Below are positions 15,753 to 21,425 of a stretch of DNA of 64,000 nt, in pieces. This DNA comes from a virus. Its lineage: Duplodnaviria; Caudoviricetes. The position numbers and the translations under genes are program-made. The stretch spans positions 1-64,000 of the IMG/VR virus record IMGVR_UViG_3300033120_000864; one strand, 5' to 3'. Positions within the stretch are counted from its first letter, which is position 1. Each line of letters begins with the position of its first letter. Below the pieces are notes generated by a model. It was not told where the DNA came from. It saw nothing but the letters and a program-made list of their open reading frames with translations, and made no database searches.

Positions 15753-15847
15753 GTTATATATACAAAGAGAGCCCGTAAGCTCTTTTTTAAGAAACCTACC
15801 CTAGCAAATATCTCTGTTCAAAGGAGGTATAGGATATGAGTTTCTTT

Positions 15848-15924
15848 GGATCCTTAGTTTAACTGGCAAAACTGCTTATTCAGAGAGGGATAAGTGTTTT
15901 TGGGTTCGAGTCCCAGGGGATCCT
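15848..15924 (+). ncRNA. tRNA-like RNA with non-canonical anticodon arm
   Basis: ggatcct/gggatcc acceptor, D-arm gttt-aactggca-aaac, T-arm ttggg-ttcgagt-cccag; extended stem gcttattc/ggataagt with purine loop agagag and no U33. Confidence 0.65.
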
Positions 15925-15943
15925 CTAATTAAAATCAAAAAAC

Positions 15944-16186
15944 ATGACAATACCCATAGTATTATTAATTTATTTTACAGGTCTTATAGTTTCCTTCTTT
16001 ATAGTTGGAGCAATAAATGACCAATCAAAAACTGAAAAGGAAAAATTTGGATTTGGTTTTGTTATACTTAGTTGGATAGGACTAGCATTTCTTTTATTTT
16101 TAACTATTATTTTCTTATGTGTTGCAGATGATGCTCCAAAACCAGGTTTAAAAACAATAACAAAACTCCTAAAAAAAGAGAAATAA
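15944..16186 (+). CDS. small membrane protein
   Basis: Two TM segments, LSWIG. Confidence 0.6.
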   Translation: MTIPIVLLIYFTGLIVSFFIVGAINDQSKTEKEKFGFGFVILSWIGLAFLLFLTIIFLCVADDAPKPGLKTITKLLKKEK

Positions 16187-16959
16187 TGGATTTAAAAAAA
16201 CTAAACATAATCAACTTTAGTGATGGTCATAGACACCTAAAGCTTACAAAGGAAGATGAATATAAATTATTCAATTCCAACTATGATCAAATAAAGATGT
16301 CAATTACATCTTTCGATGATTTGTTTCTTTTAGCTCAGCTAAAACAAATACTTCCACAAATAAAGAATTTGAGAATTGATTATCTTCTTGGAGCAAGATG
16401 TGATAGAAGATTTTCTGATCTGGAAGCTTTAGACCTTAAGATAATCTCAAATTTTATCAATGATTTAGGCTTCAAAAAAGTCTATATACATCATCCACAT
16501 TCTGAAATATCTCTAGCTTTAATAGATAACTCACAGGCTTTCTATAGAACTAAAGATTTGTTTCAACTTTGTGTAATGGAACAAAAGTGTACTAACTATA
16601 GTGTACTAGCTCCAGATGCAGGCGCAGGAAAATGGATTGAAAAGGTTTTAGGAAGATATGATGTGATTCATTGTTCTAAAATCAGAGATGTAGATACAGG
16701 AGAAGTTATAGGAGTAAAAATTCCTGATGATGTCAATGAAGATTGTATCTTTGTAGATGATTTATGTGATGGAGGTAGGACATTTATAGAACTTGCTATA
16801 GAAGCAAAGAAAAAAGGTGCCAAGAGAATATTTCTTATAATAAGTCATGCTATGTTTAGCAAAGGATTTAGAGTGTTTGATGGGCTAATAGATCATATCT
16901 ATTGTACTAATTCATTCTCTGATCTTGAAGACACTATTTTAACTCAAATAAAAATATGA
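16186..16959 (+). CDS. PRPP-synthetase-like protein, probable ADPR-PP synthetase (NARP1 Adps)
   Basis: FSDG, YLLGARCDRRF, HPHS, APDAGA, VDDLCDGGRTF; clustered with Nampt homolog. Confidence 0.85.
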   Translation: MDLKKLNIINFSDGHRHLKLTKEDEYKLFNSNYDQIKMSITSFDDLFLLAQLKQILPQIKNLRIDYLLGARCDRRFSDLEALDLKIISNFINDLGFKKVYIHHPHSEISLALIDNSQAFYRTKDLFQLCVMEQKCTNYSVLAPDAGAGKWIEKVLGRYDVIHCSKIRDVDTGEVIGVKIPDDVNEDCIFVDDLCDGGRTFIELAIEAKKKGAKRIFLIISHAMFSKGFRVFDGLIDHIYCTNSFSDLEDTILTQIKI

Positions 16960-17663
16960 GTTACAAGTACAAATTATATGGAGCTATTTTAGGAGATTTA
17001 TGTGGTCAACCTTTTGAGTTTGATAAATCTAAAAATCCTATAATAATTCATAATCCAGAATCACATTTTACAGATGATACTTTAATGACATTAGCTGTTG
17101 CTAAGTCTATAATAGAAGGATCAAATGTAGAATATGAATTTAAGGATATGGGAAATAGATACCAAGGTGATTACTATGGTAAAAATTTCAAAGCTTGGCT
17201 TACAACTCCATTAGGAACTAAAGGTGACTCTTGGGGAAATGGATGTATAATGAGAATTAGTCCTTATATGTATATTCAACAATCTCTTCCACAAATTTTA
17301 GAAGCAACTTTATGTTCACATTTCAATCAAAGAAGTGTAGAAAGTGTAATAAGATTATATAATTATTACAAAGGAGAAATAGAATGGACTGAAACTCCCA
17401 TAAAACCTTTTGAGAGATTTGTAGTAGAGTGTGATGCAACACTAGATTTTTGTATAAATGTAGTATGTCAAACATATAGTACTCATGAAGGAATCCTTAC
17501 TGCTGTAAAAGCAAAAGGAGATACAGACACAAATGCATCAATAATAGGAGAATTTAATAACTATATCTATAAAGATTTAACACAAGAAGATGTTAAATAT
17601 GTAGAAAGTAAATTAGATCCTTATCTATTATCTATTTTAAAAAACTTTAATGACAAGTATTAA
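16956..17663 (+). CDS. ADP-ribosylglycohydrolase (ARH/DraG family)
   Basis: GAILGD, FTDDT, GNGCIMR, GDTDTNASI. Confidence 0.88.
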   Translation: MSYKYKLYGAILGDLCGQPFEFDKSKNPIIIHNPESHFTDDTLMTLAVAKSIIEGSNVEYEFKDMGNRYQGDYYGKNFKAWLTTPLGTKGDSWGNGCIMRISPYMYIQQSLPQILEATLCSHFNQRSVESVIRLYNYYKGEIEWTETPIKPFERFVVECDATLDFCINVVCQTYSTHEGILTAVKAKGDTDTNASIIGEFNNYIYKDLTQEDVKYVESKLDPYLLSILKNFNDKY

Positions 17664-18061
17664 TGGATGAATATTTAGTTCCTAATGCTCAAATTGAAAG
17701 ACTAATAAAAGAATATTTGAAATATGATAGTCTTGTAATAGCTTTTGATTTTGACAATACAGTGTATGACTTTCATAAGAAAGGACATACCTATACCAAA
17801 GTAATAGAACTCTTGAGAAGACTCAAGGATGAATTACATTGCACACTTATCTGTTTTACAGGTAATGAAGATGAAGCTTTTGTTTGGAAATACTGTGAGG
17901 ATAATGGTATCCCTATTGATAAGCTAAATGAAAACTGTGACTTCTTCAAATCAACAAGTAGAAAGATATACTATAATGCTTTCCTAGATGATAGGGCAGG
18001 ATTAATACAAGTGTATCAAGAACTTGATTTACTAATCAAAATTGTAAAAGCTGATGTTTAA
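17663..18061 (+). CDS. HAD-superfamily phosphatase (capless)
   Basis: AFDFDNT, FTG, FLDDRA. Confidence 0.8.
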   Translation: MDEYLVPNAQIERLIKEYLKYDSLVIAFDFDNTVYDFHKKGHTYTKVIELLRRLKDELHCTLICFTGNEDEAFVWKYCEDNGIPIDKLNENCDFFKSTSRKIYYNAFLDDRAGLIQVYQELDLLIKIVKADV

Positions 18062-18212
18062 ACTTAAAAGATATAAACATATATCTTCAGGAGCTATTGC
18101 TGAAAGTAATAACTATGACAAAACTTATTATGTTACTTTAAACAATACTTCCAAGGGATATTGGGATCCTATTTTTATTGAAAATACTCAAGATTGGATA
18201 TTAATAAGTTAA
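18054..18212 (+). CDS. small hypothetical protein (52 aa)
   Basis: MFKLKRYK...DWILIS*, overlaps upstream stop. Confidence 0.4.
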   Translation: MFKLKRYKHISSGAIAESNNYDKTYYVTLNNTSKGYWDPIFIENTQDWILIS

Positions 18213-18256
18213 AAATATACTAATAAAGTATTTTTAACAGACATTTCAGTAATAAA

Positions 18257-18288
18257 TTTGGAGATGTCAGTTATTTTTCTTATATTTG
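18257..18288 (+). promoter_or_regulatory. Bacteroidota sigma-A-type promoter
   Basis: TTTG-N20-TATATTTG. Confidence 0.7.
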
Positions 18289-18302
18289 TAAAAAATACAA
18301 AT

Positions 18303-18797
18303 ATGAAAGAGATAACAGAAAGACATTGCAAACATTGTAATAGTGTAAAACCTATTCAACAGTTTACTAAAGACAGACATGCCAAATCAGGATATACTTA
18401 TACCTGTACTAAATGTAGAGGTATTCAACACAGAGAGTATTACAAAAATAATCCTGAGAAACAGAAGATTAAAAATGACAAACAAAAGGAAAATAGAAAA
18501 AAATTCTATAACACCCCTGAAGGTATCATTTCATCTAGAAAAGCTCATCTAAAGAAAATGTACAATATAACTTTAGAAGAATATGATATTTTACTTGAAA
18601 AACAAAATGGAGTTTGTGCAATCTGTTTTGGTAAAGAAACTTCTTATAGAAATGAAGTATTATCAGTTGATCATAATCATGAAACTGGTAAAATAAGAGG
18701 ATTGTTATGTAATACTTGTAATAGAGCTATTGGATTATTAAAAGATGATCCAAAGCTATTAATTAATGCTGTAAATTATTTAACTAAAAATGTTTAA
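18303..18797 (+). CDS. endonuclease VII-like HNH homing endonuclease
   Basis: CAIC, VDHNHETGKIRGLLCNTCN. Confidence 0.9.
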   Translation: MKEITERHCKHCNSVKPIQQFTKDRHAKSGYTYTCTKCRGIQHREYYKNNPEKQKIKNDKQKENRKKFYNTPEGIISSRKAHLKKMYNITLEEYDILLEKQNGVCAICFGKETSYRNEVLSVDHNHETGKIRGLLCNTCNRAIGLLKDDPKLLINAVNYLTKNV

Positions 18798-20325
18798 ACA
18801 AAATCCCTTAAAGCGCACAGACGGGTACAAAATTTGTCACCCTCGCATGCTTGCTCCAGGAACAACAAAACTTTATGGTCAATGGATACCACGAAGTGTA
18901 AAATATGCACCAAAAGGTGTAACCAAAATCCTTTCATTTGGTCATCAAATGACTTGGAAATGGATCCATGATGAATTTTTTGAATATTTCTTTAGTCTTC
19001 CAATACAAGAAGCTGTAGGAAAAGTTGCAAAAGATTTTACTTTATATTTAGGTATGGAATATGATGCTTCTCATTTTGAAGCTCTTCATAATCTTGGATA
19101 TCTTCCAATAAGAGTGAAAGCTCTTCCAGAAGGTATTGAGACTAAGCCTAATATTCCACACATGACTTTTATCAATACTGTTAATGGATTTGCATGGCTT
19201 CCTCTTTATTTGGAAACAATAATCAGTAAGCTTGCATGGAAACCTTCTACTTCTGCTACAACTGCTTTAGCCTATAAAAGGTTAATAAAATTGTGGCTTG
19301 AGAAGACAGATCCTGATGCAATGGGTCTACTAGAATATTTAGCTCATGATTTTAGTTCTAGAGGACTAGATGTATGGAGCTGTGTTAGTAGTGGACTTGG
19401 TCATGCTTCTTCTTTTAGAGGAAGTGATACTTTAGATGTCATAGACGCTGCAAGGTATTTCTATGGAGAATCTGAAGATGAAGTGGTAATCAATTCTGTA
19501 AATGCTTCTGAACACTCTGTATCTACCACTTGTATATTTACAATGGGTGAAAAGGAAATGTTAAAATACTTTATGAAACAATTTCCTAAAGGAATTCTTT
19601 CTGTAGTAGCTGACACATTTGATCTTTGGACTCTTATTACTAAATATCTTCCTGAAATAAAAGAAGAAATTCTAGCAAGAGATGGAAAGATAGTGATAAG
19701 ACCTGATAGTGGTGATCCAGTAGATATTATTTGTGGATGGGATACTCGTACTGCTAATTATAGCTCATATCCAGGAACATCTACACCAAGAACTTGTAAA
19801 CACCCAGCAGAAGTAGAAGGAGTTATAGAAACTCTTTGGAATATTTTTGGGGGTACTATTAATAAACAAGGTTATAAAGTTTTAGACAGTCATATAGGCG
19901 CTATTTATGGGGATTCTATAACTCTTGAGAGAGCTGAACAAATATATGAAAGACTTGAAGCAAAGGGATTTGCATCATCTAACATAGTATTTGGTGTAGG
20001 TTCTTTTACTTATCAGTATAACACAAGAGATACTTTTGGTTTTGCTGCTAAGGGAGGATGGTTTGAGACTAAGGAAGAATATCCTGATCATACAGATACT
20101 AAATCTTTTGCTATCTATAAAGATCCTATCACAGATGATGGTACTAAGAAATCTCCTAAGGGTTTGCTTAGAGTAGATCTTGTAGATGGTGAATATGTTC
20201 TTAAACAAGAATGTACTCCAGAAGAAGAATCAGGAGGCGTATTACAAGTAATATACGAAGATGGAAAATTCTTTAATACTATAACACTTACTCAGATCAG
20301 AGAACTGATAAACAAAAATGTATAA
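18790..20325 (+). CDS. nicotinamide phosphoribosyltransferase-like protein, probable Namat (NARP1)
   Basis: TDGYK, HDFSSRG, GSDT, ASEHS, IRPDSGDP, IYGDSI, KKSPKG. Confidence 0.9.
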   Translation: MFKQNPLKRTDGYKICHPRMLAPGTTKLYGQWIPRSVKYAPKGVTKILSFGHQMTWKWIHDEFFEYFFSLPIQEAVGKVAKDFTLYLGMEYDASHFEALHNLGYLPIRVKALPEGIETKPNIPHMTFINTVNGFAWLPLYLETIISKLAWKPSTSATTALAYKRLIKLWLEKTDPDAMGLLEYLAHDFSSRGLDVWSCVSSGLGHASSFRGSDTLDVIDAARYFYGESEDEVVINSVNASEHSVSTTCIFTMGEKEMLKYFMKQFPKGILSVVADTFDLWTLITKYLPEIKEEILARDGKIVIRPDSGDPVDIICGWDTRTANYSSYPGTSTPRTCKHPAEVEGVIETLWNIFGGTINKQGYKVLDSHIGAIYGDSITLERAEQIYERLEAKGFASSNIVFGVGSFTYQYNTRDTFGFAAKGGWFETKEEYPDHTDTKSFAIYKDPITDDGTKKSPKGLLRVDLVDGEYVLKQECTPEEESGGVLQVIYEDGKFFNTITLTQIRELINKNV

Positions 20326-20334
20326 TACTAAATA

Positions 20335-20359
20335 GGGGAGAGAAATCTCCCTCTTTTTT
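20335..20359 (+). terminator. intrinsic terminator closing NAD operon
   Basis: gggaga-gaaa-tctccc plus T-run. Confidence 0.7.
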
Positions 20360-20380
20360 CAAATTTTAAAACACAAAAAT

Positions 20381-20788
20381 ATGCCTTGTAATAGTAATTA
20401 TTTAAATCCCACAAATCTAGAATCTGAAACTAGAAAAGTTATAGATATGTATCTTTGGTTAGAAAGTAATTTTAAAGGAATTCCTGATAGAAAAGCTTCT
20501 AAAGTAGAAAAGAATAGTACAATATATTTTTCTAAGTCAGAATCTGATTATTTTATAAATCTTCTATGTAAAAGATGTACAGAATTAGCTAAAAGAAATC
20601 AACTAGATTCTTTATTAAATAAAGCTAATAGAATGTCAAGAAATCTGGCTAATTGGTGGGAAGATCATCAAGAAGCTGATGAAATAAGAAAAGATTTAGA
20701 AAAAAAGAAAAAACAAGATGAAAAGTTGAAAAAATCAGCTCTTTCTAAACTCTCAAATAAAGAGAAAAAAATACTAGGTCTTAATTAA
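20381..20788 (+). CDS. hypothetical protein
   Basis: MPC start, WWEDHQEAD, ALSKLS..EKKILGL. Confidence 0.65.
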   Translation: MPCNSNYLNPTNLESETRKVIDMYLWLESNFKGIPDRKASKVEKNSTIYFSKSESDYFINLLCKRCTELAKRNQLDSLLNKANRMSRNLANWWEDHQEADEIRKDLEKKKKQDEKLKKSALSKLSNKEKKILGLN

Positions 20789-20804
20789 AAACACAAAAAA
20801 CAAA

Positions 20805-21425
20805 ATGGCTAACAAAACAATTGGAGTTCCAGGATGGACAGACAAAGAAAGATTTGGCGTAGGTATGCAATATCTTGAATGGTTGTCTGGATATGGAAAT
20901 CCTAGAATAATAATGAACTGGGAAGAGTTCGTTGATGTGGACATGTTATTTCTTCCAGGAGGTCCAGACTTGGCTCCAGGAAGCTATGGAGAAGCTCCAG
21001 GCTTTTACACAGGAAATCCATGTGCATTCAGACAATTTTTCTTTGAACATAGACTCAAAAACTATGTTGATGCTCGTACACCTATTTTTGGTACCTGTCT
21101 TGGTATGCAAATGATAAATGTTCATTTTGGTGGAACTCTTAACCAAAATATGAAATACTATCATGCAGATGGAGATGGTGAACATAAAATTATCTACACA
21201 GCATCAGACAAAAAGACATACAAAGAAACTGTCACTTCATCACATCACCAATGTGTAAAGAAGCTTGGCGAAAATCTTTTAGTCATAGCAACTGCTGATG
21301 ACTCTAAAAAGACAGTGGAAGCCATTTGTCATAATGAACTCCCTATTTGTGGTGTACAATTTCACCCAGAAAGGCTTTATTCAGACTTGGCAAACACAAT
21401 GATACACAAACTTCTTAAATCATAA
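20805..21425 (+). CDS. class I glutamine amidotransferase (peptidase C26-like)
   Basis: PGGPD, GTCLGMQ, SHHQ, QFHPE triad. Confidence 0.88.
   Translation: MANKTIGVPGWTDKERFGVGMQYLEWLSGYGNPRIIMNWEEFVDVDMLFLPGGPDLAPGSYGEAPGFYTGNPCAFRQFFFEHRLKNYVDARTPIFGTCLGMQMINVHFGGTLNQNMKYYHADGDGEHKIIYTASDKKTYKETVTSSHHQCVKKLGENLLVIATADDSKKTVEAICHNELPICGVQFHPERLYSDLANTMIHKLLKS

Follow-up and report, generated by a model that had tools for sequence, protein, structure and literature searches.

A predicted phage NARP1 operon carrying two translationally coupled accessory hydrolases of the ADP-ribosylglycohydrolase and HAD families

Organization of the operon

The stretch of DNA described here, referred to as the window, comprises the first 64,000 nucleotides of the IMG/VR virus record IMGVR_UViG_3300033120_000864. 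The complete record, from an uncultured phage, is 129,807 bp long, with a CheckV completeness of 100%. Positions 16186-20325 of its plus strand harbor a single overlapping operon encoding an Adps-like (Prs-like) protein, an ADP-ribosylglycohydrolase (ARH), a HAD phosphatase and a Namat-like (Nampt-like) protein (Table 1). Adps and Namat form NARP1, a pathway that reconstitutes nicotinamide adenine dinucleotide (NAD+) once bacterial defences have degraded it and has been described in phages Bas63, SPbetaL1 and ICP1 (Osterman et al., bioRxiv 10.1101/2024.02.11.579819; PMC12774641; PMC13586617).

Consecutive genes are joined by overlaps: TAATG between the 80-residue open reading frame (ORF) and Adps and between ARH and HAD, ATGA between Adps and ARH, and ATGTTTAA between HAD and the 52-residue ORF as well as between HNH and Namat. 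The end-to-start overlaps ATGA and TAATG had already been named in the original prediction, made from the letters alone. Its succession of a small ORF, an HNH gene, the Nampt-like gene and a terminator also holds, with a single hairpin and T-run following the Nampt-like gene. The 80-residue ORF, without any Pfam or PHROG match, possibly opens the operon. A megablast search of phage records with the operon returned no match; the genomic contexts of homologs discussed below were taken from IMG/VR, GTDB genomes and phage records.

Table 1. Features of the NARP1-type operon and its borders (window coordinates)
Feature	Position	Strand	Remarks
Hairpin and T-run (second)	~15768-15790		upstream of the operon
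80-aa ORF	15944..16186	+	contains two hydrophobic segments; ends in the TAATG overlap with Adps
Adps-like PRPS homolog (Prs-like), 257 aa	16186..16959	+	phrog_619, 1.7e-59
Compact ADP-ribosylglycohydrolase (ARH), 235 aa	16956..17663	+	PF03747, 1e-15, 58.6 bits vs cut-off 26.2
Capless (C0-type) HAD phosphatase, 132 aa	17663..18061	+	phrog_1238, 6e-21; weak BT0820-type HAD match
Direct repeat ATGTTTAAAC (exact, 10 nt), copy 1	18054..18063	+	left edge of the HNH cassette; spans the HAD stop
52-aa ORF	18054..18212	+	open reading frame starting MFK
HNH/endonuclease VII-type homing endonuclease gene	18258..18797	+	PF02945, 9e-25; phrog_2633, 1e-37
Direct repeat ATGTTTAAAC, copy 2	18790..18799	+	covers the HNH stop codon and the genuine start of Namat
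Namat (Nampt-like), 511 aa	18790..20325	+	phrog_448, 3e-157
Intrinsic-terminator-like hairpin and T-run	20335..20358	+	directly 3' of the Nampt-like gene; closes the operon

The core pair: Namat and Adps

Residues 404-414 of the Nampt-like protein read GSFTYQYNTRD. This is an exact instance of the adenine selectivity clamp of Namat, a helix motif whose consensus GSX-Phi-X-Phi-X-Phi-TRD, with aromatic residues at X, is reported to be absent from true Nampt (PMC12774641). The best PDB chains are 9w5x and 9w5w (4e-107) and 9ke8 (1e-98), with an identical clamp in the 9w5x alignment, whereas bona fide Nampt is matched at ~1e-40 and over the N-terminal 310 residues only. The motif or a close variant is found in 115 of 119 related phage proteins; GSFTYQYNTRD itself is the commonest form, and ICP1 displays GSYTYQYVTRD. 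A second Namat element, the variable clamp loop (SCL), supplies a residue that stacks on the adenine and is itself of low conservation.

The Prs-like protein stays well short of the cut-offs of all NCBIfam PRPS models and shares 36% identity (2e-40) with NrsA, the Adps homolog of the ICP1 NARP1 pair. Its residues R71, H105, D144, K165, D191, D192 and D195 align with identical residues of NrsA; the acceptor and catalytic residues described for Adps are Arg87, His121, Asp161, Lys185, Asp212, Asp213 and Asp216 (PMC13586617). Since these residues are also common to canonical PRPS, they are not discriminating on their own. The PP loop, remodelled in Adps to accommodate the ATP donor (Cys215-Ser220, DDICDxAAS; PMC13586617), is DDLCDGGRT(F) here versus DDICDGAAS in the structurally characterised enzyme: the cysteine is common to both, and GGRT replaces GAAS. 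Among Namat-linked Adps, the commonest loop is DDICDGGRTF, one residue off DDLCDGGRTF (48 of 104 scored; 39 without a pattern match).

NMNAT (PF01467), which the original prediction had found missing from the window, is absent from both the window and the whole record; the control search was positive in 14 of 14 genomes. Neither Nudix (PF00293) nor nucleoside 2-deoxyribosyltransferase-like (NDT-like) genes were found in the complete record, nor was a Macro domain (Poa1p-like Adpp) in the operon or genome. The absence of NMNAT and Nudix genes from a complete genome excludes NARP2, which associates Nampt with a bifunctional NMNAT/Nudix protein. The suggestion of a NARP1-like pair is thus borne out by the clamp, by the clamp-bearing PDB chains matching far better than true Nampt, by the adjacent Adps-like gene and by the lack of NMNAT, and sequence comparison identifies the core pair with its accessory genes as a genuine NARP1 operon. 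With the described NARP1 systems it shares PRPS-like and Nampt-like genes in one operon, the Namat clamp, the key Adps residues and the absence of NMNAT. It differs from them by two coupled hydrolase genes between the core genes, by the GGRT instead of GAAS PP loop and by a homing endonuclease insertion.

To note, the Namat tblastn match is split in two segments ~240-270 bp apart at loci L044, L049, L053/L054 and L081, although the ORF is continuous (573-624 aa), which suggests an in-frame insertion of ~80-90 residues in these Namats. In the cultured Tenacibaculum phage PTm1 (AP019524.1, locus L002), a distant HAD (24% identity) lies ahead of a Namat-like gene with 59% identity, whose clamp motif, GSFTLGYQTRD, is diverged. 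No Adps homolog was detected in the whole PTm1 genome, and its Namat-like protein may be a Namat relative working without Adps.

The HAD phosphatase

The four HAD motifs, D29-x-D31-x-T33, T66, K101 and D109-D110, are invariant in 33 homologs (55-69% identity). The AlphaFold2 (AF2) model (pLDDT 90.8) shows a Rossmannoid core of minimal size and without a cap; its nearest solved structures according to Foldseek are BT0820 (2obb), 1xpj and the T4 PNKP phosphatase domain. The protein shares with the BT0820- and T4 PNKP-type capless HADs this minimal core and the DxDxT, T, K and DD motifs; it differs by its weak sequence similarity (2obb, E = 0.003) and by its membership in a distinct, mostly viral family tied to NARP1. 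No Pfam model matches it at threshold. Its PHROG label, 'phosphoheptose isomerase', is considered a mis-annotation because it fits neither the HAD motifs nor the HAD fold.

Homologs of both HAD and ARH were retrieved from IMG/VR by alignment-based scans; scans with the single HAD or ARH protein as query gave no matches. Forty-three IMG/VR loci encode a HAD homolog, and at 34 of them homologs of Adps and of Namat both lie within 6 kb. These same 34 are found among the 38 loci with at least 30% HAD identity, and in most of them HAD lies directly between Adps and Namat. The Adps/HAD/Namat trio also occurs in Bacillus phage Nemo (Herelleviridae), crAss-like phage cr111_1 (Crassvirales) and the code-15 phage Phass-1. 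In a reverse census of the 80 IMG/VR loci nearest to the window Namat (L087-L166), HAD is present in 22, about a quarter, and it is almost never met away from NARP1. Look-alikes identified by language model and structure are nearly all viral 'hypothetical proteins'. The HAD family is distinct, mostly viral and almost always linked to NARP1.

A Macro domain is encoded by 8 of 43 NARP1 loci without HAD versus 1 of 21 with HAD (Fisher p = 0.25). Strict mutual exclusivity of HAD and Macro is therefore not supported, one locus having both. NARP1 loci without HAD also carry HAD_SAK_2 (Swiss-army-knife-type) and acid-phosphatase-B-type HADs, as well as metallophosphatases.

The ADP-ribosylglycohydrolase

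The ARH retains the motifs T39-D40-D41 and D189-T190-D191-T192 together with E21, and its binuclear metal site is intact, in agreement with the TDD and DTD motifs pointed out beforehand. Residues D14, E21, D40, D41, T42, G188, D189, T190 and D191 are invariant in 36 homologs of ~240 residues. The AF2 model (pLDDT 95.8) displays the all-helical ARH fold (match probability 1.0). Its top Foldseek matches are Tri1, MJ1187, Lmo0067, DraG and ARH3, with TM values of 0.70-0.76 normalised on the query; the window protein lacks 50-130 residues of these structures. A profile search returned the same relatives (Lmo0067, ARH3, DraG). With Tri1, Lmo0067, DraG and ARH3 it has in common the fold and the metal-binding motifs; it differs by its size (235 residues versus 283-366), its low identity (13-20%) and its phage-restricted clade. 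No partner ADP-ribosyltransferase gene is found within the operon.

This clade is indeed nearly confined to phages: among 185,579 prokaryotic species representatives a single match was obtained (40% identity), on a 3.3-kb contig of a Tenacibaculum metagenome-assembled genome. On this contig (CALISK010000157.1; L168:852-2009), likely a binned phage fragment, the ARH relative directly follows a NADAR gene.

Gene neighbourhoods were compared at 17 IMG/VR loci with close homologs, grouped into 12 lineages, or 13 with the window. ARH abuts Adps or Namat in 4 of the 12 IMG/VR lineages, hence in 5 of 13 with the window, in four gene orders: Adps-ARH-HAD-orf-Namat (L010/L144, the same order as in the window), Namat-NDT-like-...-ARH-Adps (L011/L014), Adps-...-AAA-ARH-Namat (L012/L013) and ARH-Adps-HAD-orf-Namat (L021). 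The probability of at least 5 abutments in 13 lineages arising by chance is ~4e-6 (binomial, assuming 2% per lineage). In the ARH tree the NARP1-linked copies form a polytomy with unlinked ones rather than a single tight clade, and a shared origin is not resolved. In L021 (5992-6683) the ARH is split into two ORFs of 85 and 135 residues, which may reflect a decaying copy or an assembly error. Two unannotated genes located between Namat and Adps in Leptolyngbya phage Lbo-JY46 were also considered as ARH candidates and rejected (hhalign probability <1%, no Pfam match).

Proposed pathway

The identities of the genes, the integrity of their catalytic motifs and folds, the coupling within the operon and the statistical association of both accessory families with NARP1 are established by the analysis, whereas the substrates of HAD and ARH and the channelling of their products into the core pathway are inferred. 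Adps would pyrophosphorylate ADP-ribose (ADPR) to ADPR-PP, which Namat would join to nicotinamide to yield NAD+. Upstream, HAD would remove the phosphate from a phosphorylated ADPR, the product feeding Adps. Candidate substrates are ADPR-1''-phosphate, arising from RES-type NAD+ phosphorolysis, and 2'-phospho-ADPR, arising from NADase cleavage of NADP+. ARH, in turn, would hydrolyse a 1''-glycosidic ADPR conjugate and release ADPR; a cyclic-ADPR isomer, immune signals of the His-ADPR type or an ADP-ribosylated macromolecule are candidates. Of these, 2'-phospho-ADPR for HAD and ADP-ribosylated macromolecules or His-ADPR for ARH go back to the original prediction.

Two recently described systems provide precedents. 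In the NARP1-AP of Vibrio phage Gary, the genes are ordered Adps-Adpp-Namat and the Macro protein Adpp turns the ADPR-1''-phosphate made by aRES into ADPR; its authors also remark on additional genes in NARP1 operons (bioRxiv 10.64898/2026.01.28.702374). As in NARP1-AP, a phosphatase gene lies between Adps and Namat in the window, with the same presumed logic of converting phosphorylated ADPR into ADPR; in contrast, the window phosphatase is a capless HAD and not a Poa1p-like Macro domain. Based on its position, coupling and chemistry, HAD is likely a non-homologous counterpart of Adpp. By the same analogy, the published precedent would favor ADPR-1''-phosphate at least as much as 2'-phospho-ADPR as its substrate, and the PNKP-like HAD fold is compatible with a phosphate located on the adenosine ribose. 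The ADPR-sensing repressor NrtR also responds to phospho-ADPR (2008 NrtR paper), a response that may be relevant to the HAD substrate.

The second precedent is RyDEP of mycobacteriophage DyoEdafos, which is encoded within a NARP1 operon and converts 2'/3'cADPR into ADPR, from which NAD+ is regenerated via the pathway (bioRxiv 10.64898/2026.05.28.727677). The window ARH is predicted to resemble it as a hydrolase of the glycosidic bond of ADPR derivatives inside a NARP1 operon; the two differ in fold, all-helical with two metals for ARH versus a RyR Repeat12 domain for RyDEP. The operon encodes no RyR Repeat12-like glycosidase: its glycohydrolase has the ARH fold, and no other candidate gene is present. 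By analogy, ARH is likely a counterpart of RyDEP or else a de-ADP-ribosylase.

Taken together, we hold with moderate confidence that this NARP1 operon encodes two translationally coupled accessory hydrolases that widen the range of NAD+ breakdown products that can be recycled. The four-enzyme route from ADPR derivatives to NAD+ put forward in the original prediction accordingly stands for its NARP1 core and for the linkage of HAD, and its concept is plausible by the precedents of Adpp and RyDEP; the linkage of ARH is partial. The conservation of both families beside NARP1 genes, a check that had been proposed for this route, holds for HAD (34 of 38 loci linked, usually between the core genes) and in part for ARH.

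Several observations weigh against this interpretation. ARH is rare in NARP1 operons, being present in 2 of the 80 nearest Namat loci, and most ARH lineages have a Nampt-family gene 10-46 kb away or none that was found. Structurally, ARH comes closest to immunity proteins that hydrolyse arginine-ADP-ribose (Tri1, Lmo0067, DraG) and not to a ribose-ribose glycosidase, and the authors of a 2022 survey argued for macromolecular conjugates, over small molecules, as the preferred targets of phage ARG/ARH domains. As for HAD, its exclusivity with Macro is a trend only, and capless HADs often process macromolecular phospho-ends, as T4 PNKP does. Finally, the PP loop of Adps departs from the structurally characterised one.

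Alternative interpretations

The labels provided by Pfam, NCBIfam and PHROG ('ribose-phosphate pyrophosphokinase' and 'nicotinate/nicotinamide phosphoribosyltransferase') would be those of an ordinary PRPP synthetase and a nicotinamide phosphoribosyltransferase making NMN, a classical, NARP2-like salvage in which ARH and HAD are unrelated passengers. Such a canonical pair is, however, very improbable and was rejected: the PRPS model scores, the PDB chain ranking, the Namat-specific clamp and the lack of NMNAT anywhere in the complete genome all stand against it. It is also conceivable that HAD serves NARP1 chemistry in another manner than by supplying ADPR: by hydrolysing PPi to pull the Namat reaction, by clearing ADPR-PP or ADPR-cyclic phosphate by-products, or by acting on another nucleotide phosphate (e.g., NADP+ to NAD+). 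A near-obligate linkage to NARP1 suits whatever function depends on the core reactions, Adps reportedly gives ADPR-cP besides ADPR-PP, and, as HAD and Macro co-occur in one locus, the two need not duplicate each other. Nevertheless, the sole experimentally supported role of a phosphatase in a NARP1 operon is the conversion of ADPR-1''-phosphate into ADPR. Moreover, inorganic pyrophosphatase is abundant in hosts and HAD phosphatases do not normally open cyclic phosphodiesters, which makes these other roles unlikely.

A separate function is easier to envisage for ARH. It could be a counter-defence enzyme in its own right, removing the ADP-ribose that a bacterial ADP-ribosyltransferase has attached to proteins or nucleic acids of the phage or the host; its proximity to NARP1 would then stem from the clustering of NAD-related counter-defence genes, and the ADPR released would be too little to matter for NARP1. 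Its kinship, in fold and sequence, to the immunity proteins Tri1, Lmo0067 and DraG, the macromolecule-directed view of phage ARGs taken in the 2022 survey, and the location of most homologs away from NARP1, one of them beside NADAR, all agree with this explanation. Conversely, translational coupling ties the gene to both of its neighbours in the operon, Adps and HAD, four different gene orders place ARH right beside a NARP1 gene, and RyDEP provides the precedent of a glycosidase in such a position feeding the pathway. On balance, a function separate from NARP1 is possible but doubtful, and release of ADPR for recycling into NAD+ is the reading retained here.

Significance and variable cargo of NARP1 operons

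NAD+ depletion and ADPR-based signalling rank among the commonest anti-phage strategies of bacteria, and a single extra enzyme in a NARP1 operon, such as Macro Adpp or RyDEP, decides which defences a phage beats (bioRxiv 10.64898/2026.01.28.702374; 10.64898/2026.05.28.727677). The concept of accessory enzymes feeding ADPR to NARP1 was therefore already published in 2026 for these two other folds; the HAD and ARH families were not, and the four-gene form is rare. Neither a HAD nor an ARH in a NARP1 operon is mentioned in the NARP1 preprint, the NARP1-AP preprint and its Table S1, the RyDEP preprint, the 2022 virus-wide NAD/ADPR survey or the 2008 NrtR paper, and full-text literature searches combining NARP1 with 'haloacid' or 'ADP-ribosylglycohydrolase' returned unrelated passages only. 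Identification of the HAD substrate would provide a second, unrelated ADPR-1''-phosphate phosphatase or reveal another defence-made NAD+ breakdown product. ARH is a candidate for a second route to destroy ADPR-derived signals or to reverse ADP-ribosylation.

Other genes recur around NARP1. The commonest neighbour of the window Namat clade is a PF15891 NDT-like protein of ~155 residues, encoded at 41 of the 80 nearest loci and frequently placed between the two core genes; no description of this link was found in the NARP1-related literature examined. NADAR occurs in 8 of these 80 loci, and PncA, YqeY, Thg1 and T4-type RNA ligase are also recurrent. The variable cargo (NDT-like, HAD, NADAR, Macro, ARH) is a ready list of candidate counter-defence enzymes. 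Quite tentatively, NARP1 might be viewed as a funnel for ADP-ribose derivatives with interchangeable adaptor enzymes. HAD would then be a widespread third NARP1 enzyme, a non-Macro ADPR-phosphate phosphatase directed against RES-type or NADP-directed depletion, and ARH a new enzyme class able to open Thoeris-type ADPR signals into linear form or to undo defensive ADP-ribosylation, the ADPR being returned to NAD+. If so, a single four-gene operon would act against NAD-based immunity of three kinds.

The HNH cassette and the flanking genes

The HNH cassette is bracketed by two copies of the repeat ATGTTTAAAC, 736 bp apart, for which 0.26 copies are expected per 64 kb. This exact 10-nt repeat supports the earlier proposal that the HNH gene is an insertion. 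Its start may be the ATG at 18303. In Leptolyngbya phage Lbo-JY46, which encodes a Namat 60% identical to that of the window, the corresponding position in front of Namat is occupied by an HNH with 59% identity; in L162, too, an HNH homolog immediately precedes Namat.

The 52-residue ORF starts at the first ATGTTTAAAC copy, and both this ORF and Namat begin with MFK. None of the 22 small ORFs located ahead of Namat in related loci is homologous to it, and it was on this basis rejected as a gene of the pathway. Because of its common MFK start with Namat and its lack of homologs elsewhere, it can be explained as the old Namat start running into the inserted cassette; it is probably a by-product of the HNH insertion and not a conserved gene. 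The ancestral operon would be orf80-Adps-ARH-HAD-Namat, and the homing-endonuclease cassette would have landed later at the HAD/Namat junction, breaking neither gene.

None of the gene starts of the operon (window 15900-20810) displays a Shine-Dalgarno sequence; they are preceded by A-rich leaders resembling those of Bacteroidota and of the phages of this phylum. A tRNA gene at 15848-15925 (+), immediately before the operon, has the anticodon UCA of the opal-suppressor type and is labelled SeC by ARAGORN. Recoding of TGA, which this tRNA brought to mind, was rejected for the window: TGA terminates 14 of 74 long ORFs, and its readthrough adds at most ~30 codons and merges no long ORFs. Just downstream, at 20805-21425 (+), a class-I glutamine amidotransferase is encoded, whose 35%-identical homolog in Lbo-JY46 lies among gamma-glutamyl cyclotransferase (GGCT) and ATP-grasp genes. 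This neighbourhood disfavors a place in the NAD module, and the amidotransferase probably belongs to a separate amidoligase module.

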